NCBI GenBank assembly: GCA_033762295.1
Contig: JANRLW010000120.1
Coordinates: 1-18,235 of the forward strand
DNA: 18,235 bases
Source: Capsulimonadales bacterium
GTDB taxonomy: Bacteria > Armatimonadota > Armatimonadia > Armatimonadales > Armatimonadaceae
Direction of reading: 5' to 3'
Below the pieces are notes generated by a model that saw nothing but the letters and a program-made list of their open reading frames with translations, was not told where the DNA came from and searched no databases. A program made the translations under genes and the position numbers. Positions 1 to 14,463 of this stretch are shown in pieces. Position 1 is the stretch's first letter, and every line of letters begins with the position of its first letter.

Positions 1-867
1 GTGGTCTTTTTCGCACAGGAAGAGGCCGGCAGGCTGGGCGAGAACTACGTATCGACGGAACACCTGCTCCTGGGACTGGTTCGAGAGAATGACAGCGTGG
101 CGGCACGGATTCTCGACCGGCTCGGGGTAAGCCTGGGACGGGTCCGCTCGGAGATCGAAAGACAGGTAGTTCGGGGCGACGGACGTCCGGGGCAGGATAT
201 GCAACTGACGTCGCGCGCCAAGCGGGTGATCGACCTGGCATTTGACGAAGCGCGACAGCTCAACAATAACTATATCGGTACCGAACACCTGCTTCTGGGC
301 TTGATCCGGGAGGGCGAGGGGTTGGCCGGTCGGGTCCTCAACAAACTGGGCGTCGATCCGGAGCGGACCCGGCGCGAGGTGATTCGGTTGCAGGAGGCCG
401 AACCGGGGGAAATTCCGACGACTCCGAAGGCGGAAACAACGGAACGGGTGGACCGTCCGCAGTACCTGCCCGGTTTGCTCGGAACCGCGAAAAACGACGA
501 CGGGCGGGACTACATCGAAGTCGCCCTCGATACCGCCACCTTTCTCCAGCTTATCGACGTTTTCCAGGCGAAGGATTCCTTCGGCTACCGCGCCCTCCTC
601 CAGGGAGACCAGACCATGTTCGCCATCCCGGTCGGCACTCCCCTGAAGATCCTGGTCGTTCCCGCAGACGGAGCGGTGGTCGGCGAAAAGATCGGCTTTT
701 ACGTCCGCGTCCTTGGGGGCCACTATGCCGGGTATGCCGGATGGATCTTCCGAGATTACTTCGAAACCGTCGGGCCGGATCACGCCGTATTCCCGCCGCC
801 CATCGATCCTCCGGCCGTCGACGGCGGCGGGGCAGAAGAGGTCGGTCAGGCCGGTCAAGGAGAATGA
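1..867 (+). CDS. Clp repeat (ClpC N-terminal) domain protein with an unrelated C-terminal domain and no AAA+ ATPase; probably 5'-truncated by the window edge
   Basis: Two Clp-N repeats (AQEEAGRLGENYVSTEHLLLGL and AFDEARQLNNNYIGTEHLLLGL) span about aa 1-131. The ORF opens mid-motif, about 11 aa into a typical ClpC start. It stops at 867 with no Walker A/B. Confidence 0.85.
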   Translation: MVFFAQEEAGRLGENYVSTEHLLLGLVRENDSVAARILDRLGVSLGRVRSEIERQVVRGDGRPGQDMQLTSRAKRVIDLAFDEARQLNNNYIGTEHLLLGLIREGEGLAGRVLNKLGVDPERTRREVIRLQEAEPGEIPTTPKAETTERVDRPQYLPGLLGTAKNDDGRDYIEVALDTATFLQLIDVFQAKDSFGYRALLQGDQTMFAIPVGTPLKILVVPADGAVVGEKIGFYVRVLGGHYAGYAGWIFRDYFETVGPDHAVFPPPIDPPAVDGGGAEEVGQAGQGE

Positions 868-2140: not shown

Positions 2141-5100
2141 ATGCCCATCCTCATGCAGTTCGATCTTTCGACGCATCCGACGCGTTTCCCGATCAGTCGG
2201 GTCCTTTCGGTAACCGCCCTGATTTTCGGGATGAACGCCGTGGCGTTCGCCCAGAACCCGCCGCCCGCACCGAAGGGAACCCCGCAAAACGCCCCCGCCG
2301 TGACGCAACCCGCTGCCAAAACCGTGCTTGTTTACCGGGCGCAGGCGGGACAGGTTCGCAAAGGGCGTGGCATGGCCAGTCTGACGCTCTCCCCCGGCGG
2401 ACAGAAAGTTTCTCTGGACATTCGGGAAAGCAGCAAACAGACCTACAAAAGCGTCGCACCGAACGGTGACATCACCTATGAGGAGACCACCGAATCCTCC
2501 GAAACCCTGGTGAACGGACGAAAACCCGAAACCCCGGAAGAAGATCAGAACAAGGATGTCAATACGATCACGATCCGCCCGAACGGAATGCTCGTCTCCT
2601 ATACCTCCACCAAAGAGGATAAGGACGACCTGAAGTTTCAGGGCCGCCTGTACTACGCGACCAATATCGTCTTTTCCGAGAAACCGGTCGGCAAGGGCGA
2701 CAAATGGACCGTCGATATCAAGCCGAATGAGGACCTCGGAGTTCGCGCGTCCAAAATCGAATACGAAGTGGTCGATACCAAACGGATCAACGATACCGAC
2801 ACCGTCATGATCCGTTTCTCCTTCGCCGAGAACACGTCCGGCGGCATCTCCAGCAAAGGCAACCTCCTGATCGAGGCCAATTCCGGCGATACCCTCTCCG
2901 CCGATATCAATATCGAAGGCGTTCCTCTCGGACCGCCCGGACAGGAAACCCCCGCCACCGGGAAACTGATCACCGAACGGGTGGAGGGCGGCCCGCTCCC
3001 CGGCGCGAAGAATGTCGCCGCCGCCCGGACCGAGAAGAAAGATAAAACCATCGATGAAACGGTGAAGGATTTCGAGAAGATGCCCGGAATCCTCACCCTT
3101 TACCGGAAGAAGGAATCCAATCGGGAGACCATCTACCTCGAGATTCCCGAGGCGAAACTGGACAAGCCGTATTTCCTGCAGGTGACCGCCGCCACCGGGA
3201 CGGGTCAGGAAATCATTGCCGGAGACGCGATCAACGATATTGTCTTCAAATTCTCGCGCAACGGCGACGATAAACTTCTGTTGATCACTCCCAACTGGCA
3301 GAACCAGGCCGACCCGACGACCCCGATCGGCAAAGCGGTCGAACGATCCTTCTCCGAAAGCTACCTCCAGTCGTTCAAGATCGAGGCGAAACAGCCCGAA
3401 CGGAAATCGCTACTGATCGATATCTCCGACCTGTTCCGGTCCGACTTCGCACAGATCACGCGGGCGCTGAGCGGTGGGGACGGTCTCGCGGGGCTTCTCG
3501 GAATGCCGTCCGGCGGCGGCGCGGGACTTGACCGCGAAAAAACCTATATCCGGTCGATCAAGAACCTCCCCGAAAACCTGGTCGTCTTTACCCAGTACCA
3601 CTTTCTGCGCGGTGGACGCGTCGCTCGTGGCGCCTCCGCGCCGGCGGACCCCCGGAGCCTTCCACTGGTGGTTGCCTACAACCTGATCGCGCTGCCCAAC
3701 GACGAAAATCTGCGGCCTACCAACGGTTACGTCCCCCGCAAAGCCGATCCGCGCGTCGGTTACTTCACGACGGAGTACTTCGACTACACCGACGACACCC
3801 GGGACGAGTTCATCAACCGCTACATCACCCGCTGGGATCTTCGCAAAAAGGACCCGAACGCTCCCCTTTCCGAACCGGAAAAACCCATCGTCTTCTGGCT
3901 TGACAATGCGATCCCCACGCAATATCGGGAAGTCACCCGCCGAGCCATCCTCGTCTGGAACAAAGCGTTCGAAAAAATCGGGTTCAAGGACGCCATCCGC
4001 GTCGAGCAGATGCCCGACAAACCCGATTTCGACCATGCGGACCTTCGTTACAATGTCGTTCGCTGGGTCGTGACGCCGCCGGACTCCCCCCGCAACGGCG
4101 TTGCGGTCGGTCAACTGCGCGCCAACCCGCTGACCGGGCAGATTCTGAATGCCGCCGTATCGATCGACGCCGAGTGGACGCACTACTCGCGAATTTTGCA
4201 CCGCAACCTGATCGACCCCGCCGCCCGGTTCCGGGAAGGCGCGAACCTTGATATGGAAGAAGCCCTTTCGGGCGTCGTTCCCGTGTCCGAGGAACTGGCC
4301 GCGCGTATCGCCCGCCGACGCAGCGGAGCGGACGCCCGCCGGTGCGAGATTTCCGCCGGTCTCGGTGAGAAAGCCGTCTTCGGCCTGATGGCGCTCGACC
4401 TCTCGGAACCCGCCGGTCTGACACCGGCGCGGGAAAAGGACTACACCGAGCAGCTTCTTCTGGAAACCGTCACGCATGAGATCGGACACGTCCTCGGCCT
4501 GACACATAACTTCATCGCCTCGACGCAATTGACCCTGGAGCAGTTGAAGAACCCGCAGGTGGTCCGCGAGCAGGGAATCAGCGCGTCGGTGATGGACTAC
4601 AACAACTTCAATATCTCGGCGATCGGCGCGCCCGGAGTCGATTTCTACTCCCAGACCGTCGGCGTCTACGACCTCTGGGCCATCCGCTACGGCTACTCGA
4701 CCTTCGCTCCCGGCGCCGAGACCGCCGGCCTGAAGGAAATCGCGTCCCAGAGCAACCGTCCGGGACACGCCTACGAAGAGGACATCACCGCGTTCATCGG
4801 ACTCGATCCGCGCGTCGTTCAGTACGACATTTCGGGTCAGCCCCTCGATTACTGGGAGCGCATGCTTCAGCTTTCCCGACGGCTGATCCTGACCCTCGAT
4901 GCCCGCGAACCGAAAATGGGCGAATCCTACTGGGAGTTCACCAAACGCCTGAACCTCCTGCTCGGGCAGTATGCACGGGCGGCGGGCGTCACCTCCCGGT
5001 TCATCGGCGGAATCCGACTGAACCGGAACCACCGGGGCGACGCCAACGAACAGGCGAATACGCTTCCGGTCAGCGTTGCCGACCAGAAGCGCGCACTCAA

Positions 5101-5758
5101 CCTGTTGAACACCTACGTCTTTGCGCCGACCGCCATGACGCTGCCCGAACGGTACTACGGCCATCTCACCAACGACCCGTATAATCCCTCCTTCTCCCAG
5201 GACCAGCCGATCGGCGACGCAATCTCCAACGTTCAGACCAGCGCCGTGCGCCGCGTTTTCGCGCCGTCGGTGCTTCGTCGGCTGCAAAACGCCGAGTTCA
5301 AGATGGGAGAGGGAAGCAGCAAAGCACTGACCCTCCCCACCCTGTTCGACAGCGTGCGCGATAACATCTGGGCCGAGGTCCGGACGGTTGCCGTAACCCG
5401 TGTGGCCGCCGTACGATCGGTCCCCCCGGCGACCAGAGCAACGCCGATCCGTATTCCGCTCCTGCGCCGACAGCTCCAGAGAGCCTACCTCGACACCATG
5501 ATCGATATGGCGACCAAACCGACCGGTGCGCCGGACGACGCCCGGATGCTTGCCTGGGAACAGTTGCGGCAGATGAAAACGCGACTCCTCGCCGCCCGAA
5601 CCGCACCGACCGCCGACGAGTACACGCGTCTGCACCTGCGCGACTCCCTGGACAAGATAAACCGGGCTCTGGAAGCCAAACTGACCCTCGGCGCAGCGAC
5701 CCCTTCCGGTTCGGACTCGAACCTTCTGCGAATGCTTCTCGGCGGAAAAGGACCGTAG
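2141..5758 (+). CDS. Secreted zinc-dependent metalloprotease (metzincin; EcxA-like, DUF5117/DUF4953-type architecture) with an extra N-terminal domain
   Basis: Signal-peptide-like N-terminus ending AVAFA-Q, HEIGHVLGLTH zinc motif (4475-4507), SVMDY Met-turn, family motifs PRKADPRVGYF, KPIVFWLD and GVYDLWAIRYGY. Start is ambiguous between ATG 2141 and ATG 2153. Confidence 0.88.
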   Translation: MPILMQFDLSTHPTRFPISRVLSVTALIFGMNAVAFAQNPPPAPKGTPQNAPAVTQPAAKTVLVYRAQAGQVRKGRGMASLTLSPGGQKVSLDIRESSKQTYKSVAPNGDITYEETTESSETLVNGRKPETPEEDQNKDVNTITIRPNGMLVSYTSTKEDKDDLKFQGRLYYATNIVFSEKPVGKGDKWTVDIKPNEDLGVRASKIEYEVVDTKRINDTDTVMIRFSFAENTSGGISSKGNLLIEANSGDTLSADINIEGVPLGPPGQETPATGKLITERVEGGPLPGAKNVAAARTEKKDKTIDETVKDFEKMPGILTLYRKKESNRETIYLEIPEAKLDKPYFLQVTAATGTGQEIIAGDAINDIVFKFSRNGDDKLLLITPNWQNQADPTTPIGKAVERSFSESYLQSFKIEAKQPERKSLLIDISDLFRSDFAQITRALSGGDGLAGLLGMPSGGGAGLDREKTYIRSIKNLPENLVVFTQYHFLRGGRVARGASAPADPRSLPLVVAYNLIALPNDENLRPTNGYVPRKADPRVGYFTTEYFDYTDDTRDEFINRYITRWDLRKKDPNAPLSEPEKPIVFWLDNAIPTQYREVTRRAILVWNKAFEKIGFKDAIRVEQMPDKPDFDHADLRYNVVRWVVTPPDSPRNGVAVGQLRANPLTGQILNAAVSIDAEWTHYSRILHRNLIDPAARFREGANLDMEEALSGVVPVSEELAARIARRRSGADARRCEISAGLGEKAVFGLMALDLSEPAGLTPAREKDYTEQLLLETVTHEIGHVLGLTHNFIASTQLTLEQLKNPQVVREQGISASVMDYNNFNISAIGAPGVDFYSQTVGVYDLWAIRYGYSTFAPGAETAGLKEIASQSNRPGHAYEEDITAFIGLDPRVVQYDISGQPLDYWERMLQLSRRLILTLDAREPKMGESYWEFTKRLNLLLGQYARAAGVTSRFIGGIRLNRNHRGDANEQANTLPVSVADQKRALNLLNTYVFAPTAMTLPERYYGHLTNDPYNPSFSQDQPIGDAISNVQTSAVRRVFAPSVLRRLQNAEFKMGEGSSKALTLPTLFDSVRDNIWAEVRTVAVTRVAAVRSVPPATRATPIRIPLLRRQLQRAYLDTMIDMATKPTGAPDDARMLAWEQLRQMKTRLLAARTAPTADEYTRLHLRDSLDKINRALEAKLTLGAATPSGSDSNLLRMLLGGKGP

Positions 5759-5766
5759 ACCGCCTT

Positions 5767-5795
5767 ACCTCCGGGAGGATTGATCTCCCGGAGGT
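5767..5795 (+). terminator. Stem-loop after the metalloprotease stop (putative terminator or mRNA 3'-end hairpin, no U-tract)
   Basis: Perfect 11-bp inverted repeat ACCTCCGGGAG / CTCCCGGAGGT with a 7-nt loop, 8 nt after TAG. Confidence 0.6.
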
Positions 5796-5938
5796 GAACG
5801 CCATAAGATGCCCCGGCTGTTTCCAAAAAGAAGGGAAACCCGCGACCGGCTCCCTGACTCTTGACTATTGTTCGTATGTTTGCCTCCCCGCAGTCACGTG
5901 GCGTACCGCGACCGACCTGCCCGAGGCGAGGAGGGTAC

Positions 5939-6643
5939 GTGTTACAAAAGGGATTCGAGTTTCTTCTGCGCGGCGGCTGGATCATGTGGCCGCTGTTTGT
6001 GTGCGCCATTCTGTCCGTCGCTGTGATGATCGAACGCACCTGGGTCCTGCGTCGCCAGGAACGGGAGGCGGACACGGCATCCGAACGCGTTCTCCACGCG
6101 CTTCGGCAGGGGAACGCCGAAAATGCCCTCACGGAAGCCCGGAAATCGAACGGCGCGGTCGGCAAGGTGCTGGCCGCCGGACTGTCGCGGCGGAGTCAGG
6201 GATCGGAAGCGGTCGAACAGGCCATGCAGGCCGCCGGCCTCCGCCAGTTGCGCGTGCTCAATGAACGCCTCGGGTGGCTCGATACCATCATTACCATGGC
6301 GCCGCTCCTCGGACTGCTGGGAACCGTCACGGGCATGATCAGTGCGTTTCAGGTCGTCGCCACCGCCAGCGGCGCGTCCGCCGCTCCCGCCATTACCGGG
6401 GGCGTCGCCGAGGCCCTTATCGCCACCGCCACCGGCCTCGCGATCGCCGTCGCAACCCTCCCGGTTTATAACCATCTCACCGAAAAGGTGAAGGAACTGA
6501 CCAACGACATGGAGGCGGCGGCGACCGAAACCCAAAGTCTGCTGGCCGGACTGCCGAACGTCGATGCCGAAGCCGCCTCGCAGGACGGATCGGCGGCTTT
6601 TCCGGAGGAGGCGATCCGTGCGTCTGCCACAGCAACCCGCTAG
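5939..6643 (+). CDS. exbB: MotA/TolQ/ExbB proton channel family protein
   Basis: GGWIMWPL in TM1, APLLGLLGTVTGMISAF in TM2 and GGVAEALIATATGL in TM3, with the conserved Thr/Glu/Thr channel residues. GTG start at 5939 follows a GAGGAGG SD. Confidence 0.93.
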   Translation: MLQKGFEFLLRGGWIMWPLFVCAILSVAVMIERTWVLRRQEREADTASERVLHALRQGNAENALTEARKSNGAVGKVLAAGLSRRSQGSEAVEQAMQAAGLRQLRVLNERLGWLDTIITMAPLLGLLGTVTGMISAFQVVATASGASAAPAITGGVAEALIATATGLAIAVATLPVYNHLTEKVKELTNDMEAAATETQSLLAGLPNVDAEAASQDGSAAFPEEAIRASATATR

Positions 6644-7049
6644 AAAAGGGCGCATCGAGATCATTCCCATGATCGACGCCATCTTCTTCCTGCTGGTCTT
6701 CTTTATCATGACCAGCCTTTCCATGATCCGGCTGGAAACGCATGGCGCGACACTGCCCGGCAGCCGGACGACCGTCGCCCAGTCCCTCACCGGCGACCGA
6801 CTGGTCGTCGTTCTTCGGCGGGATCAGGCGATCTTCGTCGATAAGAACCCGGCCAGCGAAGCCGATGTTTTGCGGATTGTCCGTGAACGGGTCGCCGCCA
6901 CGCCGGACCTGCCCGTCCTTCTCACCGCCGACCGGGAAGCCGATGTCACCCGGTTTTTACGACTCTTCGACCTGGTCAAACAGGCCGATGCCCGGAATGT
7001 CATCGTCGCCACCGAACTGACCCCGTCCGCCCCGACACGAGGCAACTGA
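6618..7049 (+). CDS. exbD: ExbD/TolR family biopolymer transporter (copy 1)
   Basis: IEIIPMIDAIFFLLVFF TM motif with the essential Asp and a C-terminal LTADREA motif. GTG start at 6618 follows GGAGGAGG and overlaps the end of exbB. Confidence 0.92.
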   Translation: MRLPQQPARKGRIEIIPMIDAIFFLLVFFIMTSLSMIRLETHGATLPGSRTTVAQSLTGDRLVVVLRRDQAIFVDKNPASEADVLRIVRERVAATPDLPVLLTADREADVTRFLRLFDLVKQADARNVIVATELTPSAPTRGN

Positions 7050-7549
7050 TGCGCCTGCCGAAAACGCCGCCGAAACGCGCCCGAATCGAAATCGTGCCGA
7101 TGATCGACGCGATCTTCTTTCTGCTCGTTTTCTTTATGTACAGTTCGCTTTCGATGGTCAAACTCAACGGTCTTCCCGTCGCGCTACCCCAGGTGCCCGG
7201 CAGCGGAACCCCGAGGCCCGGCATCGCAAAGGAGGCCCCGCACCTCCTGGTCGCTTTACGTTCCGACGGGTCCCGTACCGTGCGCGGCAACCCCGTCGCC
7301 GACACCGATCTCCTCGCTGCCGTGCGCAACTACCTGAACGAAAAACCCGAGACGCTCGTGGTACTGCAGGCCGAAAAAGGAAGCGGCATTCAGGACCTTG
7401 TCTCCGTCATGGACGCGCTGAATACCCTTCGCCTCGCCGATGGTCGGACACCTGCCATCCTCGTCGCCACTGAGGCCGTCACACGACCGGACCGGGCGGT
7501 GGCCGCTCCCGGAAACCCAACCGGGCCGATCCAAGGACCGAAACCATGA
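7049..7549 (+). CDS. exbD: ExbD/TolR family biopolymer transporter (copy 2)
   Basis: IEIVPMIDAIFFLLVFF motif, periplasmic domain VVLQAEK...LVSVMDAL, and a TGATG overlap with the first exbD. Confidence 0.92.
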   Translation: MRLPKTPPKRARIEIVPMIDAIFFLLVFFMYSSLSMVKLNGLPVALPQVPGSGTPRPGIAKEAPHLLVALRSDGSRTVRGNPVADTDLLAAVRNYLNEKPETLVVLQAEKGSGIQDLVSVMDALNTLRLADGRTPAILVATEAVTRPDRAVAAPGNPTGPIQGPKP

Positions 7550-10500
7550 AAAACTCTCCCCTTTTCAAGGGTTCCATCGCCCTTTCGTTCGTTGTGAACC
7601 TGACCGCCGTGACCGTCCTCGGGTACGCGAAACTCCATGAAACCGTTCCGGCTCTGCCGACCGAGTCGAAGACCTTCGGACCGATCCGCTTCGGTGTGAT
7701 TCATCTTCCCACCGCCACTCCGACACCGAAGATCAGTTCCCCCACACGCCTTTCCGAAGCCATCGCTCGCGGCATTCAGGTCGGTAAGGGCGATGACGAC
7801 GATGACCGACCGGCGTCGATGGCCGATTCGTCCTCCGGGGGAGCGAACGCGAAACCCGGCATCGGACGGGACACCGGTGCCGGACGCAAGGGGAGCGAAG
7901 GAGCCGTCGGTAAGAGCGCGGGCCGGGGGGAGGAGGGCTCCGCCGGGAAGGATCGGACGGCAATCGCGAACAACACCGGCACGGCAACGCGGGAAGCGGC
8001 GAAATCCGGAGCGGCGAACGGCGATCGGTCGAAACCGGAAGAAAGCCGGTCGGTGGCGTCCGGCGAACGGACATCCCGGTCGGATAGGACCCTCCGGCCC
8101 GGCAAAGGCTCCGCCGCCGCGCCCGGTGGAATCCCGCTTACGGAGAATCGGGGGACGCCGCGCGCCGAAACCGCGGCGAGAGGAAATCGACAGGGGAAAG
8201 CGTCGGATAAGGACGGAGCGGAAACCGTCAACGGTCGGGAGGAAGGGGCAGGGGCGACCGAAAAATCCTCCGAAACGACCGCCGGGACCGGCACCTTCGT
8301 CATGCCCCGGGTCGCTCGTATGTGGAGCGTTCCACCCGGACAGCGCATCGTACTGCCCGAAGGCCTCAAACTGACGCTTCCCAAAGAACTGCCCGTTATG
8401 GCGGCGGCTAACCCGCTGTCTCGCGAACAGATCGAACAGTTGCGGAAAATGCTTCAGGGGCAAAATCTCCGCCGTATGCAGGGTCTGACACGGGAACAGC
8501 TCAAACGGATGCTCGCCACGCGCAAGGAATCCGAACGGCTCATCTCCCCGGAACCGGCCTCCGCCCCCGCTGCGGAGCCAACCCCGAAACCGAAGGCGGC
8601 CGCGAAGCGGGACAAACGCTCACCTTCGGAACGGGACCCGAAACCGTCCGTGGCATCGCTTCCGCCCGGTCTGAACTCCCCCTTCCGTTATCGCCCCTGG
8701 AGCCCGGTCTGGCAGCAACGGTACGCTCCTCTGCTGAACCGGGCCACACCCGATCGAACGACGGTCGCCGGACTGGCAGGAAAGGCCGAACGCCCCCCGA
8801 CGCTCTCCCCCGAACCCCGATTCACCGGAGTTCAGGTGGCCCGTGCCGACCGACCGCCGCAGACCGCCGAACCGCCATCGCCGGAAGGAAAAACAAACGG
8901 CACCGGAACGCCCGATCAGACCGGTCCGTCGGGTCAGGCAGGTCAGGCAGGTCAGGTCGCTCAGGCCGGTCAGGCCGGTCAGGCCGGGGACAACAACCGG
9001 AACACGGCTCCGTCCTCGACTTCCGCCACCGGCGCGAATGGCGGACGCCCCTCCGGAAAACCGCAGGGGAACGGCTCGACGGCGGCGGGCGGCGGCAACG
9101 GCGTTCCGATCGATCGGAACGCCGGGGCGAACACCGCGGCGGATGGCGGCAGCGGTTCGGGCAACGCGACGGGTAACGGAACCGGTCAGGCACAGGGAGG
9201 AAAAGGCAACAGTTCCGGTTCCGGCCAGGTCCTCGGCGAGGGACAGGGCAACAACGGTACCGGCGGCGGCAACGGGACGATCAATGCAAATCAGGCCGCC
9301 GGAACCTCCGATGGCCGACAGAACGGTAGCGCCGGGACCGCCTCCGCTCTGGGCGTCGGAGACGGCGCGGCGGGTAGCAACGGCGGAAACAATAACACCG
9401 CCGGTGCCGGGAACGCCGGAAACGGCGGAGAGGGTAAAGGCGGAAACGGCGGAGCGCTCGGAGAGGGCGGTGGCGCCGGGAGCGGAAACGGCGGGGCGGG
9501 TTCCGGGGGCGACACCGGCGGAGGCGGCGGCGAGGGGGGGACCGGCGGAGGCGGCGGAGCCCTCGACGGGTTCGTGGGCGGCGAACTGACCGACAACGGC
9601 GAAGGCATTGCCGGAGAACCCGGCGCGGATAGCGGTGAGGCGAACGGGATCGATACCGGGCATACCCCGGCCGTCGGCGTCCCGCCCAACTTCCCGGAGC
9701 ACAAACACCACCTTCGGAAAGGCATTCCCGGCGCGCTCGTCCTGCCGCCTCTCCCGCCGGTCGGAACCGACAGGGGGCGACCGATCCGCCCGAAGGAGAT
9801 TCAAAGGAGCCGGATCGAGGAACGCGCCGCGCCCCGTGGCGCGACCGATCCGCAGGTAGCCGCACGGGCTGCCGATGCCCGGAAGCCCGTGCCCGATAAC
9901 GCCTCTGCGAAGAAACCGGCCCCGCCCCCGCTCGTGACCGTCGTCGGGTCCGCCAGTCGACGCGGAACCGTTTCGCTCCTCCGACTGCCGAAAGCCGAAG
10001 CGACCACCGGCGAAACGGTCCGATTCCCGGCGGACGCTCCGCTCGCCGCGGTTCCGGCAGGCAGGACGCCGGTCCGCTCCGTCGAGGAATCGGTCGCCCG
10101 TCCCGCACGGCGAACCGCCGCACCTCAGTCGGCGAGTACGGAACGGAAAGAATCGCCGGTCGGTGCCGCACAGGCGCGACAGGAGACCCGGGAACGCAAA
10201 ATCGCCAACAGCAAGGGCATCCGGCAGGGGTCCAAAACGCCGATCCCCCCGACTCCGCTGCCCGACAGCGATGCGGAACTGGGCGACGGTTCGGGGCTTC
10301 GCGGCGAATACTACCTCGGCCGTAACTTTGAACAGTATCAGTTCTCCCGTGCCGACTTCGATCTGGACTTCTTCTGGGGCGCGGACCGCTCCCCCAGTCC
10401 CCGTCTTCCCGTCGGGGCCGACTGGTCCTGCCGATGGACCGGGAAGATCCAGCCGCGCTACACCGACACCTACACGTTCTACGCGGTCGCCGACGACGGC

Positions 10501-10767
10501 GTCCGGGTATGGATCGATTACAAACTGGTCATCGATGACTGGACGCTGCATCCCCTCCTGGAATACTCCGGAACGGTCAAGCTCGAAGCGGGGAAACAGT
10601 ACGATATCCGCGTCGATTACTTCGAAAGCGGTGGGCCGCCGGCCTCTCTCGGCATCTACTGGGAATCGGCGAAACAGGTGAAGGAGTTTATTCCCCAGGA
10701 ATGTTTCTTCTATCCGCTGGCCGGAAGCAAAACGGAACTGGAGAAATATGAAAAGCCCCGCTGGTAA
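7546..10767 (+). CDS. TonB-like membrane-anchored protein with a long low-complexity linker and a C-terminal PA14 domain
   Basis: N-terminal TM (SIALSFVVNLTAVTVLGY), about 860 aa rich in Gly/Ala/Pro/Arg/Asn, and a PA14 domain at about 10282-10716 (GLRGEYY...RWTGKIQPRYTDTYTFYAVADDGVRVWID...LEAGKQYDIRVDYFE). ATGA overlap with exbD copy 2. Confidence 0.82.
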   Translation: MKNSPLFKGSIALSFVVNLTAVTVLGYAKLHETVPALPTESKTFGPIRFGVIHLPTATPTPKISSPTRLSEAIARGIQVGKGDDDDDRPASMADSSSGGANAKPGIGRDTGAGRKGSEGAVGKSAGRGEEGSAGKDRTAIANNTGTATREAAKSGAANGDRSKPEESRSVASGERTSRSDRTLRPGKGSAAAPGGIPLTENRGTPRAETAARGNRQGKASDKDGAETVNGREEGAGATEKSSETTAGTGTFVMPRVARMWSVPPGQRIVLPEGLKLTLPKELPVMAAANPLSREQIEQLRKMLQGQNLRRMQGLTREQLKRMLATRKESERLISPEPASAPAAEPTPKPKAAAKRDKRSPSERDPKPSVASLPPGLNSPFRYRPWSPVWQQRYAPLLNRATPDRTTVAGLAGKAERPPTLSPEPRFTGVQVARADRPPQTAEPPSPEGKTNGTGTPDQTGPSGQAGQAGQVAQAGQAGQAGDNNRNTAPSSTSATGANGGRPSGKPQGNGSTAAGGGNGVPIDRNAGANTAADGGSGSGNATGNGTGQAQGGKGNSSGSGQVLGEGQGNNGTGGGNGTINANQAAGTSDGRQNGSAGTASALGVGDGAAGSNGGNNNTAGAGNAGNGGEGKGGNGGALGEGGGAGSGNGGAGSGGDTGGGGGEGGTGGGGGALDGFVGGELTDNGEGIAGEPGADSGEANGIDTGHTPAVGVPPNFPEHKHHLRKGIPGALVLPPLPPVGTDRGRPIRPKEIQRSRIEERAAPRGATDPQVAARAADARKPVPDNASAKKPAPPPLVTVVGSASRRGTVSLLRLPKAEATTGETVRFPADAPLAAVPAGRTPVRSVEESVARPARRTAAPQSASTERKESPVGAAQARQETRERKIANSKGIRQGSKTPIPPTPLPDSDAELGDGSGLRGEYYLGRNFEQYQFSRADFDLDFFWGADRSPSPRLPVGADWSCRWTGKIQPRYTDTYTFYAVADDGVRVWIDYKLVIDDWTLHPLLEYSGTVKLEAGKQYDIRVDYFESGGPPASLGIYWESAKQVKEFIPQECFFYPLAGSKTELEKYEKPRW
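8932..8985 (+). repeat. In-frame 9-bp tandem repeat, 6 imperfect copies encoding (GQA)n
   Basis: ggtcaggca ggtcaggca ggtcaggtc gctcaggcc ggtcaggcc ggtcaggcc. Confidence 0.85.
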
Positions 10768-13459
10768 GGGCCTGAAGGGGATGCTTCTCCTGCTGACGGC
10801 AGGGGTTTGCGTTCCCGCGCCGGCCCAGGAAACGCCGCGTCCGACCCCCGCGCCCGTGGTCCGTCCGAGGACCGCGCCGGACGGCAACAACGCTCTGATC
10901 GCCGCGATTCGCGACAACGACCCGGTACGCCTCGCCGCCGTTCTGGAACGTGGCGGAAATGTCAACGCCACCGACGCCAACCTTTCCACCCCGCTCATGC
11001 AGGCCGCCGCCGCCGCCGGTCCCGAGGTCGTCCGGCTGCTGGTGGAGAAGGGAGCGGAAGTCCGGGCGCGGGACAAAACCGGCTTTACACCGCTCATCAT
11101 CGCCGCCTACTCCGGAAAGCCCGAGGTCGTCCGCTACCTGCTGGAACGCGGAGCGGACCCGAACGACGCCGATAATGATCGGCGAACGGCCCTGATGGGG
11201 GCCGCCTACTCCGGCCGGGAAGACGTCGCCCTGCGACTTCTCGAAAGCGGCGCGGAAATCAACGCAACCGATAAGGATGGGTTCACCCCGCTGATGGTCG
11301 CGTCCGGAACCAGGAACGCCGCCCTCGTTCGACTGCTCCTCGACCGGGGCGCGAACATCAATGCGCCTACCCGTTCCGGCTTCACTCCGCTGATGCAGGC
11401 GGCGGGCGCAGGCCAACCCGCGGTCGTTGCCGTGCTCCTGGAACGAGGAGCCGAAGTCAATGCCCGCTCGCAGAAACGCGCCACCGCCCTGCTGGTCGCC
11501 GCCTATGCCGGAAACGCCGAAATCGCCCGGCTGTTGCTCGAACGCGGAGCCACCGTCGAAGTGGCCGATTCCGTGGGTCACACGCCCCTGATCGGAGCCG
11601 CCTACTCCGGAAATGTCGCCATCGCTCGTTCCCTGCTGGATCGGGGAGCCAGTATCAAATCGAAAACGACCGCCGGCCTCGATGCGCTGATGCAAGCCGC
11701 CTATTCCGGACGCCGTGACGTCGCCGCTCTTCTCCTCGCTCGTGGCGCGGCGGTCGATTCACGGACCGTTCGCGGTCTCACTCCCCTGATGCAGGCGGTC
11801 GGCGCAGGAAACGCCACCACCGCCCGGCTCCTCCTCGATTACGGCGCGGATGTCAATGCTGAAGACAGTTCCCGGCAGACACCCGCTGTCTGGGCGCGTA
11901 AACGCGGTCACGAAGAGATGCTGCCTCTGCTGCGCCAGGCCGGTGCCGTGATCGACGGAAAGACCGCTTCCGCTCCCGTCCCGGTGCCGTCCACCACCGC
12001 TCCGTTCTGTCAAAAACAGTTAGCCCTGTCTCCCCCTTCGGTCATCCCGGAAATCCACGGGCCGCACGTCCTGGGGATGTCCCCCGGACGCCCGTTCGTC
12101 TATCGCATTCCGGCGACCGGCAAAGGAAAACTCCTCTTTTCCGCGACGGGACTTCCCGCCGGCGTCCTTCTCGACAAAACGACCGGCATCCTTCGCGGTA
12201 AAATCGCCGCGCCGGGCCGGTACCCGACCGTTCTCAAAGCCGGAAAGGACGGCAAACCGTTTGCACTGACGCTTATCTGCGCGAAAGGAAAGATCGGACA
12301 AACCCCGCCGCTCGGATGGAGCGCCTGGAACCTGTTCGGAGACACGGTCGATTTCGAAAAGGTTCGGGAACAGGCGGATTGGCTGATCCGCTCCGGTCTG
12401 GCCGCGCACGGGTTCAACTACATTCTGCTCGACGACGCCTGGCAGGGCCGCCGCGATCTTCGGACCGGCGAACTGACCGCCAATCAGCGGATGCGCAGCA
12501 TCAAGGCTCTGGCCGATTACCTGCATGCCCGCGGCCTGCGCCTGGGAATCTACTCGTCGCCGAATGAGGAGACCGGCGGTGGCTACACAGGAAGCCAGGG
12601 CCGGGAGGAACAGGATGCCCGAACGTTCGCCGCCTGGGGCGTCGATTACCTGAAATATGACTGGACCGATAACAAACAGGGACGCCTGAACGTCGATCGG
12701 GAAACCGTTATCGCGGCGTTCGCCCGGATGCGCACGGCTCTCGATAAGACCGATCGTGACATCTTCTATGCCATCACTCCGTACGGGTTCGGAGGAGTAC
12801 AGCCGTGGGGCGACCCGCCGGTTTCCGCCAATAGCTGGTGGACCTCCCTTCAGGTCGTCGAAAGCTGGGACGCGATGTCGCGGAACGGCTTCCGCCTGGG
12901 CGTCGGGTTCGGTCAACCCGCCGGTCCCGGCCACTGGAACGACCCCGGATGGCTGCTCGTCGGGAAGATCGGATCGGCAAGCATCAACCCGCACTTCACC
13001 GCACTGACAGCCGACGAACAGAAAACGCAGATCTCCCTCTGGACCGTGGTGGCCGCGCCGTTGATCCTTTCCTGTGACCTGCGGCAACTCGACCCCAATC
13101 GCTTCTTTCCGATCACGACCGCCCTGCTCACCAATGACGAAGTCCTCGCCGTTCACCAGGACGCTCTGGGCAAGCCGGGCGAGCGGATCGGGACGCAGGG
13201 ACGGGCGGAAATCTGGGCGCGTTCCCTCGCCGATGGCACGATCGCGATCGGCCTGTTCAACCGGGGCGACTCCGAACAGAAGGTAACCGTGGATTTCGAA
13301 AGCCTGAAGGAGTGGGACGGCGGGGAACGCACGGGACCGCAGCCGGTTCGCGACCTCTGGTTGCGTCAGGATAAGGGAACGGCCACGGACTCCTTTTCCG
13401 CGTCCGTTCCCGCCCACGGGGTCGTGCTGATCCGCCTGGGAAAGCCGACCACGCCTTAA
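10748..13459 (+). CDS. Secreted ankyrin-repeat / Ig-like (He_PIG) / GH27 alpha-galactosidase-like fusion protein
   Basis: Signal peptide ending VPAPA-Q, 11 ankyrin repeats (10880-11947), He_PIG-like segment (FSATGLPAGVLLDKTTGILRG), GH27 barrel (TPPLGWSAWN, LDDAWQ, GIYSSP, WGVDYLKYD, GHWNDP) and C-terminal beta-sandwich (VRDLW, VPAHGVVL). Confidence 0.9.
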   Translation: MKSPAGKGLKGMLLLLTAGVCVPAPAQETPRPTPAPVVRPRTAPDGNNALIAAIRDNDPVRLAAVLERGGNVNATDANLSTPLMQAAAAAGPEVVRLLVEKGAEVRARDKTGFTPLIIAAYSGKPEVVRYLLERGADPNDADNDRRTALMGAAYSGREDVALRLLESGAEINATDKDGFTPLMVASGTRNAALVRLLLDRGANINAPTRSGFTPLMQAAGAGQPAVVAVLLERGAEVNARSQKRATALLVAAYAGNAEIARLLLERGATVEVADSVGHTPLIGAAYSGNVAIARSLLDRGASIKSKTTAGLDALMQAAYSGRRDVAALLLARGAAVDSRTVRGLTPLMQAVGAGNATTARLLLDYGADVNAEDSSRQTPAVWARKRGHEEMLPLLRQAGAVIDGKTASAPVPVPSTTAPFCQKQLALSPPSVIPEIHGPHVLGMSPGRPFVYRIPATGKGKLLFSATGLPAGVLLDKTTGILRGKIAAPGRYPTVLKAGKDGKPFALTLICAKGKIGQTPPLGWSAWNLFGDTVDFEKVREQADWLIRSGLAAHGFNYILLDDAWQGRRDLRTGELTANQRMRSIKALADYLHARGLRLGIYSSPNEETGGGYTGSQGREEQDARTFAAWGVDYLKYDWTDNKQGRLNVDRETVIAAFARMRTALDKTDRDIFYAITPYGFGGVQPWGDPPVSANSWWTSLQVVESWDAMSRNGFRLGVGFGQPAGPGHWNDPGWLLVGKIGSASINPHFTALTADEQKTQISLWTVVAAPLILSCDLRQLDPNRFFPITTALLTNDEVLAVHQDALGKPGERIGTQGRAEIWARSLADGTIAIGLFNRGDSEQKVTVDFESLKEWDGGERTGPQPVRDLWLRQDKGTATDSFSASVPAHGVVLIRLGKPTTP
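10880..11947 (+). repeat. Ankyrin repeat array (11 units of about 33 aa)
   Basis: Repeated G-x-TPL-xx-AA-x-x-G-...-LL-x-x-GA-x-VN pattern at 33-aa periodicity. Confidence 0.93.
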
Positions 13460-14463
13460 CCGGCCGTCGGGCGCGTCTTCCAGGCGGAAAGGACCGTTTG
13501 TTCCTTCTCGCGCGTCAGCGTGTTCCGATAGGTCCCCTCCTTCGGTCGGCCCAGGTCCCAGAGGAGCGTGTCATGCACCGTTTCGGATAATGGCCGGATC
13601 GACAGGCCGTGCTTCAACGCCTTCGCGATCGAGATCGTGTCGAAACCGCGGCCCATCTCCGATGGCACCCAGAGCGGTAGTTCCGACCACGGGGTAACCC
13701 CCTGTTCCTGCAGAAAGTCCTCCGAAACGTAGGTGAACGTCGCGTCGCTGCTGGTGACCGTGCGGCAGGTATCCATCAGTTCATCCATCGTCAACGGATA
13801 GTCCGGTCCGCAGACATTGAAGGTACCGGTAACGCCTCGCTCGATCAGGCGAATATTCCATTCGGCCAGGTCGCGAACGTCGATGATTTGCACTCCGCGT
13901 TCGGGGTCGTCCGGAACGAGCACCTCCCCGCCCTCCGCGATCCGTTTCGGCCAGTAGGAGAACCGGTCCGAAACATCGTAAGGCCCGACAATCAGACCGG
14001 GCCGCAAAACCTGAGTCCGACCCGGCAATGCCGCTTCCGCCGCCCTTTCGCAAAGCGCCTTCAGCGGCCCGTAGGTGTCTCCGTTCACCTCCTCGACGGT
14101 CGGGTCGTCCATCGTCCCGAGTGCGGCGGACTCGTCCATGTTCTCCGTCCGATAGTCCCTGTAGACGGAAACGGACGAAATGAAACAATACAGCTTCGTT
14201 CGGTCGGCCAGAAGCGATGCCGACGCCGTCACTTCCCTGGGAATGTAACCGCAGGTATCGATCACCGCGTCCCATTCTCGTTCCGCCAGCGGCCGCAGTT
14301 CCTCCGGATTTCGCCGGTCTCCCCGGATCTTTTCCACCTCCGGAAACCAGTCCGGATTATGCTTTCCCCGATTGAATAGCGTCACCTCATGGCGACGTTC
14401 GAGCGCGGCCTCCGTCAAATGACGGCCCAGAAAAATCGTCCCGCCCAGGATCAGAATTCTCAT
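13456..14463 (-). CDS. NAD-dependent epimerase/dehydratase family protein (atypical SDR, isoflavone-reductase-like)
   Basis: MRILILGGTIFLG Rossmann motif, YCFISSVSVY, YGPLK (YxxxK) and LRPGLIVGP. Its stop overlaps the stop of the convergent GH27 gene (TTAA). Confidence 0.92.
   Translation of the reverse strand: MRILILGGTIFLGRHLTEAALERRHEVTLFNRGKHNPDWFPEVEKIRGDRRNPEELRPLAEREWDAVIDTCGYIPREVTASASLLADRTKLYCFISSVSVYRDYRTENMDESAALGTMDDPTVEEVNGDTYGPLKALCERAAEAALPGRTQVLRPGLIVGPYDVSDRFSYWPKRIAEGGEVLVPDDPERGVQIIDVRDLAEWNIRLIERGVTGTFNVCGPDYPLTMDELMDTCRTVTSSDATFTYVSEDFLQEQGVTPWSELPLWVPSEMGRGFDTISIAKALKHGLSIRPLSETVHDTLLWDLGRPKEGTYRNTLTREKEQTVLSAWKTRPTAG

Follow-up and report, generated by a model that had tools for sequence, protein, structure and literature searches.

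The stretch of DNA analyzed here (the window: all 18,235 nucleotides of contig C120, from an Armatimonadota genome of 5.16 Mb that is 94.5% complete) carries on its forward strand five genes in a single orientation, each running into the next, with successive overlaps of 26, 1, 4, and 20 nt. In order, they encode an ExbB, two different ExbDs, a long TonB-like arm that ends in a PA14 domain, and an exported protein in which an array of ankyrin (ANK) repeats is fused to a domain of glycoside hydrolase family 27 (GH27). One question concerns us: what sort of load could a proton motor be pulling when the tip of its arm is a lectin-type domain and not the domain with which TonB grips the TonB box? 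The features on which our answer depends are the following.

5765-5797 (+): GC-rich hairpin with a 14-bp stem, 3' of a metalloprotease gene; the 5' boundary of the unit
5939-6643 (+): exbB, 234 aa, subunit of the proton-channel pentamer; GTG start, with the ribosome-binding site GAGGAGGG ahead of it
6618-7049 (+): exbD1, 143 aa; GTG start
7049-7549 (+): exbD2, 166 aa, a heterologous second ExbD
7546-10767 (+): TonB-like force-transducer arm with PA14 head, 1073 aa; overlaps exbD2 by 4 nt
7570-7632 (+): transmembrane helix of the arm, residues ~9-29, with S14-x3-N18 and L25
8290-8733 (+): linker segment found in long arms only, residues ~249-396; candidate docking site for ankyrin
10282-10716 (+): PA14 head of RsgI type, residues 913-1057, with a DcisD motif at D983-D984
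10717-10764 (+): acidic C-terminal tail that follows PA14, specific to long arms (alignment A7)
10748-13459 (+): exported ANK-GH27 fusion, 903 aa; overlaps the arm gene by 20 nt
10886-11977 (+): ankyrin array, residues ~47-410, ~11 repeats (Pfam Ank_2, 3e-68)
12302-13438 (+): GH27 barrel and beta-sandwich, with D638 kept, W698 in place of Arg, and Q702 in place of the acid/base Asp
13456-14463 (-): convergent epimerase gene, overlapping the last stop codon of the operon by 4 nt

The motor is readily recognized. Pfam assigns the exbB product to MotA_ExbB (3e-30) and the products of exbD1 and exbD2 to ExbD (1.6e-19 and 9.6e-20, respectively), and the two ExbDs share 39% identity with each other. 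The Asp that aligns with Asp25 of Escherichia coli ExbD is retained in both, as are, in an alignment with TolQ and ExbB, the two Thr residues of the ExbB pore ring. The GTG start of exbD1 is backed by orthologues that share the same N-terminal residues. On the 5' side, the hairpin folds with -26.2 kcal/mol (z = -4.15; 0 of 200 shuffles fold equally well), and, having no U tail, falls short of a textbook terminator. When the open reading frames (ORFs) of the window were scanned with Pfam, they held no TonB-dependent receptor, TolB, or Pal domain and no TPR match; a sigma factor or other regulator was likewise absent from the ORFs scanned. A preliminary description, made from the letters alone, had claimed the four overlaps, the upstream hairpin, the convergent gene, the intact motor residues, the lack of receptor, TolB, and Pal genes in the window, and a PA14 arm in the place of TonB, and on all of these points it was right.

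That is, we have an exbB-exbD-exbD operon followed by a protein that begins as TonB begins and ends as something else. The arm has a single N-terminal helix, preceded by ~8 cytoplasmic residues (in which Pfam finds nothing), and this helix bears the Ser-x3-(His/Asn) motif of TonB, with Asn replacing His. In E. coli, according to the available text of one preprint (bioRxiv 10.1101/2024.10.08.617233), the motif of TonB and TolA is Ser-x3-His-x6-Leu-x3-Ser, and Ser16 and His20 of this SHLS set touch ExbB; a second preprint, as far as its available text goes (bioRxiv 10.1101/2021.12.08.471779), has Asn substituting for His20 of E. coli TonB with full function. None of the seven arms that we aligned departs from N18 or L25, and six have S14 (Ala in the arm G035b); S-x3-N recurs in eight further cluster representatives, and the same S-x3-N is found in 8/8 of the inspected TonB_C-type TonBs of the order, including the one encoded elsewhere in this genome, on contig C116. 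Some 25-35 residues past the helix, arms and TonBs both carry a short alternating hydrophobic motif with prolines, which may be the "motor box" of the force-transducer survey discussed below (PMC12204202). The ~870 residues before the head are of low complexity and rich in Gly, Ala, and Pro, and after them, where TonB_C would be, comes PA14. It is the only domain that Pfam and NCBIfam find in the window's arm, and TonB_C is absent from 9/9 arms scanned (seven of the window's family, namely the window, L028-L031, L128, and L129, and two, L130 and L131, of a second family with an S-x3-H helix).

Could the arm have landed beside the motor by accident? An arm relative lies directly after exbB-exbD-exbD in 22/22 of the loci that have upstream sequence, which excludes a chance neighborhood. 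These loci are the window, 16 from genomes of the same order, and five from metagenomes (the window, L028-L031, G021, which is split between L123 and L032, L041, which equals L135, L128, L129, L139-L144, L147, L149, and L158-L162); in 8/22, the sequence stops before the C terminus of the arm, and the arm was identified by its linker segment alone. Run against 1.84 billion proteins, a profile of that segment (alignment A5) retrieves no more than 16 cluster representatives, of which 12 score at E <= 1e-10; the full-length ones share one layout (helix, segment, PA14, tail), and the members of these clusters are named only "hypothetical protein." The ExbBs of the related loci are 46-60% identical to the window's, the most similar being that of genome G008 at 60%. 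At that locus (L122), an IS3-type transposase pair at 39-1254 comes right after exbD2, and there the contig ends. For the window's operon as a whole, a look-up of public sequencing runs listed none, RNA data included.

The same ExbB subfamily also has a more conventional life. In a sister operon, it is followed by a TonB of ~250-325 aa, a TonB-dependent receptor of ~900 aa, and a lipoprotein, a layout seen in 11/20 of the first fetched regions (by ORF listing) and in 6/20 of the next set (by tblastn). In L118, the one sister operon on which Pfam was run, TonB_C matched at 3.7e-9, the receptor showed CarboxypepD_reg, Plug, and barrel domains, and the lipoprotein carried PKD. A tree of 28 ExbBs places PA14-coupled and TonB_C-coupled members in one subfamily (91/95 support); as drawn, it needs five changes of coupling, and its starred branches are compatible with a single origin of the PA14 motor. 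To judge from gene order and this kinship, the PA14 arm fills the tonB slot of a paralogous operon, because the same ExbB subfamily elsewhere precedes TonB. The genome's sole other motor locus, at 6200-14700 of contig C116, is more distant (32-34% identity between its ExbBs and that of the window) and comprises genes for a receptor-like protein, a fused ExbB-ExbD (386 aa), another ExbB, a separate ExbD, and a TonB of 641 aa in which TonB_C is matched; the only TonB-dependent receptor match in the genome is there, next to this conventional motor. We are confident that the locus encodes a force transducer that is coupled to a motor and has had its head exchanged for one of lectin type, and that in this subtype it bears an ankyrin adaptor along with a GH27-like module.

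What would the head hold? Pfam matches PA14 to arm residues 916-1047 (3e-23), and an AlphaFold2 model of the last 194 residues, made from an alignment of 18 sequences, is confident over the domain (mean predicted local distance difference test score, pLDDT, of 80.5). In a Foldseek search, it comes closest to the PA14 dyads of RsgI3 and RsgI4 (6qe7 and 6qdi; E ~1e-14, TM score 0.70, 41-45% identity), with toxin pro-domains, yeast adhesins, and the sugar-binding PA14 of a Marinomonas RTX adhesin far behind; phmmer matches the head to 6qe7 at 1.2e-68. In the part of the RsgI study available (PMC6852018), these dyads are described as extracellular polysaccharide sensors of cellulolytic clostridia, and their PA14 binds pectin or xylan through a calcium ion held by the DcisD motif, a Tyr, and a specificity loop called CBL2. 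Here, DDG is invariant in all 18 PA14 sequences, the Tyr of the calcium site is retained, and a Glu aligns with the Gln or Asn that opens CBL2 in RsgI; the CBL2 loop itself differs between the long and short subtypes of the arm (see below). A glycan is thus a likely ligand for the head, judged by its family, and binding of polysaccharide would probably depend on calcium. When species genomes were searched broadly for PA14, 75 paralogues came from other phyla, none of which has an exbBD neighbor according to ExbB and ExbD queries; this shows only that close relatives of the window's head are not motor-linked in other phyla.

The nearest relatives of the head are parts of sensors, and it is because of this that signaling looks like a serious rival to glycan pulling. 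In that case, the PA14 head would report polysaccharide, the motor would power or gate a signal to gene expression, and ANK-GH27 would serve as a co-receptor or be one of the products under control; essentially, it would be a receptor-less counterpart of TonB-dependent cell-surface signaling or of RsgI sensing, the PA14 of whose anti-sigma factors is the polysaccharide-sensing kin in question (PMC6852018, in the part available). The neighborhood of some relatives speaks for this. Four short-arm loci (L129, L143, L147, and L149) have a homologous gene directly upstream of exbB, which in L143, L147, and L149 encodes, according to Pfam, an extracytoplasmic function (ECF) sigma factor fused to extracytoplasmic CarboxypepD_reg domains, and L030 and L031 carry, two genes upstream, an ORF that reads by eye like an ECF sigma factor. 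Yet the arm, with so few cytoplasmic residues, has no anti-sigma domain, the window's scanned ORFs offer no sigma factor or regulator for it to address, and no regulator is conserved beside the long-arm loci. We take sensing seriously, all the same regarding it as rather unlikely. As an aside, CarboxypepD_reg is also found N-terminally on TonB-dependent receptors of this order, and its fusion to a sigma factor hints at motor-linked signaling.

The arms come in two kinds, and the kind predicts the neighbors. Long arms share two features that short arms lack, the conserved segment at ~249-396 and the acidic tail. To the long kind belong the window, L028, L029, L041, and L161, the partial arms of L139, L140, L141, L144, L158-L160, and L162, and five full-length cluster representatives in which the acidic tail is present; to the short kind belong L030, L031, L032, L128, L129, L142, L143, L147, and L149. 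Downstream of the arm, ANK and/or GH27 genes are found in 9/9 long-arm loci that have downstream sequence (the window, L028, L029, L041, L161, L038, L039, L040, and L042). Where that sequence is full, five of five loci have an exported ANK protein and four of five a GH27 (L029 has ANK only), and the four C-terminal fragments with a tail of the long type (L038, L039, L040, and L042) are each followed by ANK and/or GH27. Within the fetched flanks, such genes are absent from the short-arm loci (0/9). The preliminary description had held that it would be refuted if the PA14 and ANK-GH27 genes were not linked to exbBD in related genomes, and it passes: the PA14 gene is beside exbBD in all the relatives examined, and ANK or GH27 genes are linked in all those with a long arm, although, as the short-arm loci show, ANK-GH27 is no universal part of the system.

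The partners have been rearranged a good deal. The window shares its ANK-GH27 fusion with 11 other public proteins; in L028, L040, L041, L042, and L161, ANK and GH27 are separate genes, with GH27 first and ANK second (the opposite of their order in the fusion). In G008, the end of a GH27 gene lies directly upstream of exbB, and some of the loci have a GH27 that includes a Laminin_G_3 domain. That the genes stay linked through fusion, fission, and reordering speaks for a common function. Linker segment and acidic tail would most likely dock the ankyrin partner, as their joint occurrence with it suggests. Ankyrin grooves typically bind unfolded peptide stretches; the segment, modeled by itself with AlphaFold2, has a pLDDT of 55 and a predicted template modeling score of 0.18, and being unfolded alone, it would fit a docking stretch. 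(In L041, at 11760-13162, GH27 is matched in three frames, which may be frameshifts or assembly errors.)

The partner itself is an odd enzyme, if it is one. Pfam finds ankyrin repeats, He_PIG, Melibiase_2 (3e-44), and Melibiase_C in the fusion; the orthologues of its ankyrin array are stand-alone exported ANK proteins, and the closest solved relatives of its GH27 part are He_PIG-GH27 proteins from Bacteroides (PDB 4nzj, E = 5e-76). Aligned to 4nzj, the nucleophile Asp (in YLKYD) is retained as D638, while in the WR..GD motif, Arg has become W698 and the acid/base Asp Q702. Six GH27s linked to these loci have Gln (five) or Glu (one) at the acid/base position, and Trp and Gln occupy the two sites in 12/12 ANK-fused proteins. 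Among 123 surveyed GH27 relatives, 85 are canonical, as is the unlinked paralogue in the same genome (contig C101, 27313-28707, minus strand), which has both the Asp and the Arg. Its N-terminal region, incidentally, reads by eye like a carbohydrate-binding module of NPCBM type. We also considered a decaying GH27 pseudogene, an idea that is ruled out by Gln in all 12 fusions together with an intact frame. On these alignments, the linked GH27 is a conserved, noncanonical form, so that "glycosidase-like scaffold," the wording of the preliminary description, was apt; it may be a module that binds alpha-galactosides or an enzyme with altered chemistry.

These partners also bear on the plainest of the alternatives, that the arm is an ordinary TonB with an odd end, at work in conventional import, and that ANK-GH27 is an unrelated neighbor from sugar metabolism. 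After all, the arm has every feature of TonB bar the C-terminal domain, and GH27 genes are common in these genomes. What makes us think this very unlikely is that not one of the nine arms scanned shows a TonB_C match, that a TonB with TonB_C already stands at the receptor locus on C116, that the ANK/GH27 linkage outlasts these rearrangements and tracks two features of the arm, and that the linked GH27s, unlike the unlinked paralogue, are without the acid/base Asp.

A different thought comes from what the genome lacks. Omp85 genes are present and mark it as diderm, yet no TolB_N or OmpA/Pal-type match was found in the 94.5% of it that we have, and its only TonB-dependent receptor sits at the other motor locus. 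Perhaps, then, the arm is a Tol-Pal substitute, an envelope tether that grips the cell's own wall or outer-membrane glycan while the proton-motive force (PMF) holds or remodels the envelope, for example at division. Housekeeping of this sort is poorly suited by a patchy spread in which many genomes of the order do without the ExbB subfamily, nor would it call for the three arm loci that one genome holds or for a CBL2 loop that varies between subtypes, and we consider a tether improbable.

PA14 is also an adhesin tip, in yeast and in the Marinomonas RTX adhesin, both of which the head matches in fold (at ~11-17% identity), and this raises the idea of a surface adhesion or gliding device, like AglRQS/Glt, with the lectin head as its adhesin. 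A gliding role has been suggested for the vWA-headed transducers (in the available part of PMC12204202), and the ANK genes of L038 and L041 have prepilin-like genes behind them. The difficulty lies in getting out: the head is tethered to the inner membrane, and the loci share no conserved gene for an outer-membrane conduit, a Glt-like protein, or adhesin export. Prepilin-like genes, moreover, are very common in Armatimonadota. We doubt this explanation strongly. (The genes in question, L038:2840-3403 and L041:14907-15716, encode a prepilin-type N-terminal methylation motif; their place after the ankyrin gene may be chance.)

Of all this, we think that the most likely sum is a PMF-driven, receptor-independent device for handling or sensing glycan. 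How might it work? We picture a second Ton-type proton motor, set aside for this one task and built from a pentamer of ExbB and a heteromeric pair of ExbD1 and ExbD2, whose force-transducing subunit would be a head-swapped relative of TonB. The arm's TonB-type helix, with its S-x3-N, would bind the side of the motor; just past the membrane would come the short strand-like motif and then the ~870 disordered residues, which would cross the periplasm and present at their tip, in place of the TonB-box-binding domain, a polysaccharide-binding PA14 of RsgI type. In the long arms, linker segment and acidic tail would dock the exported ankyrin solenoid, which would bring along, as a fused part in the window, a GH27 domain that resembles alpha-galactosidases but has lost the acid/base catalyst. 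The head, the GH27-like module, or both would take hold of a glycan, either within the periplasm or on the inner side of the outer membrane, and proton flow would pull the arm so that the glycan is captured, released, moved, or strained with no TonB-dependent receptor taking part. In this combined form, PMF spent on a glycan without a TonB-dependent receptor, we hold the reading with moderate confidence. A bolder version would have the lectin head grip a polysaccharide while the docked ankyrin and GH27 hold an alpha-galactosyl unit, possibly as a long-lived glycosyl-enzyme, such that pulling replaces the lost chemistry in release, translocation, or cleavage; we think this version unlikely.

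Several things weigh against the glycan-handling machine, and it would be wrong to hurry past them. The nearest relatives of the head, in RsgI, are sensors and not parts of transport systems. The spread is patchy: an ExbB match at E <= 1e-20 is found in 53/71 genomes of the order, weaker paralogues included, and so is lacking in 18/71, and two genera score 0/6 and 0/10. In a diderm cell, a periplasmic arm does not obviously reach an extracellular polysaccharide. The positions of ExbB transmembrane helix 1 that in E. coli contact Ser16 and His20 of TonB (Ser and Trp there) align with Ala and Val here, so the E. coli contact is not simply transferable. A lost acid/base residue is no proof that the GH27 is inactive; plant myrosinase has Gln at that site and is active on an activated substrate. 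The counts of co-occurrence come from kindred loci and genomes, and they overstate the independence of the cases. Finally, since the short-arm loci have no ANK or GH27, the partners must be an add-on, and the core function would be independent of them.

Why should one care what hangs on the end of such an arm? The known uses of Ton- and Tol-type 5:2 motors are nutrient import, envelope upkeep, and gliding, and whether they drive other loads is a question that the 2025 survey of force transducers raises explicitly (PMC12204202, in the part available). Here, a diderm phylum that has been little studied supplies a test case both small and conserved, one in which motor and arm are recognizable from sequence, the head family has solved, ligand-defined relatives, and the ankyrin array and Gln-bearing GH27 point to a carbohydrate target. 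Linker segment and tail predict which loci have partners, and that leads to concrete hypotheses about docking. Should the arm work mechanically on a glycan, or on a protein bound to one, the reach of PMF-driven envelope machines would come to include the handling of carbohydrates with no TonB-dependent receptor involved; in the bolder, force-assisted version, a 5:2 ion motor would for the first time be tied to work on a carbohydrate-active protein. Should the arm instead be a sensor, glycan signals would have a new way across the periplasm.

The rest of the window can be dealt with briefly. Directly upstream, at 2141-5758 (+), with the hairpin between it and exbB, is a gene for a secreted zinc metalloprotease of 1205 aa (DUF5117 and a DUF4953 Met-zincin domain), which is not kept beside the related loci. 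At 1-867 (+), an ORF open at its 5' end encodes two Clp_N repeats and then ~150 residues without a family match.

It is among the known systems that the locus is best judged. With ExbB-ExbD-TonB (of E. coli and of exbB-exbD-exbD-tonB operons), it shares the motor families and their key residues, the gene order and the transducer slot, the single N-terminal Ser-x3-(His/Asn) helix, and a disordered, Pro-rich linker that spans the periplasm; it differs in having a PA14 lectin-type head and no TonB_C, no TonB-dependent receptor in the locus, a far longer linker (~870 aa), and the extra ANK and GH27-like partners. Tol-Pal resembles it in being driven by PMF through a motor from the same superfamily and in having a single-pass arm whose target is the outer envelope and not a transporter, whereas our locus comes without TolB and Pal (neither is in the window, and neither turned up in the genome) and without TolA domain III, and its distribution is patchy. 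RsgI3 and RsgI4 (6qe7 and 6qdi) are likewise single-pass proteins with a C-terminal, extracytoplasmic PA14 that is 41-45% identical to the window's and has the same DcisD and Tyr; the arm, for its part, lacks a cytoplasmic anti-sigma domain, has one PA14 and not a dyad, has another CBL2, and is found in a diderm host, coupled to an ExbBD motor instead of an adjacent sigI. The GH27 alpha-galactosidases with an N-terminal Ig-like domain (4nzj and 4ogz) share with the partner the series He_PIG, barrel, and beta-sandwich, the nucleophile Asp, and the DD pair that binds sugar, and they differ from it in the Gln at the acid/base site, the Trp for Arg, the fusion to 11 ankyrin repeats, and the linkage to a motor operon.

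The closest parallel is also the one that tempers our claims. The preliminary description had put the locus forward as a candidate new system, and this was too much to say, for Williams-Jones et al. (2025, Mol Biol Evol, PMC12204202) have published "motor-driven force transducers" with vWA heads, encoded beside TPR-tolQ-tolR-tolR and of unknown function according to the available text. Those proteins, as described there, likewise join a TonB/TolA-like helix and a disordered linker to a globular head that is not that of TonB, with paired tolR-like genes, and they too have a solenoid-repeat partner (TPR in their case, ANK in ours). The window differs from them in its PA14 head, the Asn in place of His in the motif, the absence of a TPR gene, the ANK and acid/base-less GH27 partners, and the Armatimonadota host; PA14 is not mentioned in the available text of that paper, and our literature search found no fusion of PA14 with ExbD or TonB, the co-mentions being GH3 enzymes near TonB-dependent receptors. 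Nor is the window's family the only PA14-headed one in its order. The arms of L130 and L131, which follow exbB and one exbD and have an S-x3-H helix, are a different family, and L130 (25-6705), with a TPR-like ORF (recognized by eye), exbB, exbD, and the S-x3-H transducer, has the layout of the published cassette with a single exbD. (A glycogen phosphorylase gene comes next in L130, after the arm.) What is new, then, is an S-x3-N family in Armatimonadota with an RsgI-type head and a split into long and short arms, and with it, as the sequences suggest, a candidate docking segment and a tail that track ankyrin and GH27 partners, the latter without their acid/base residue.

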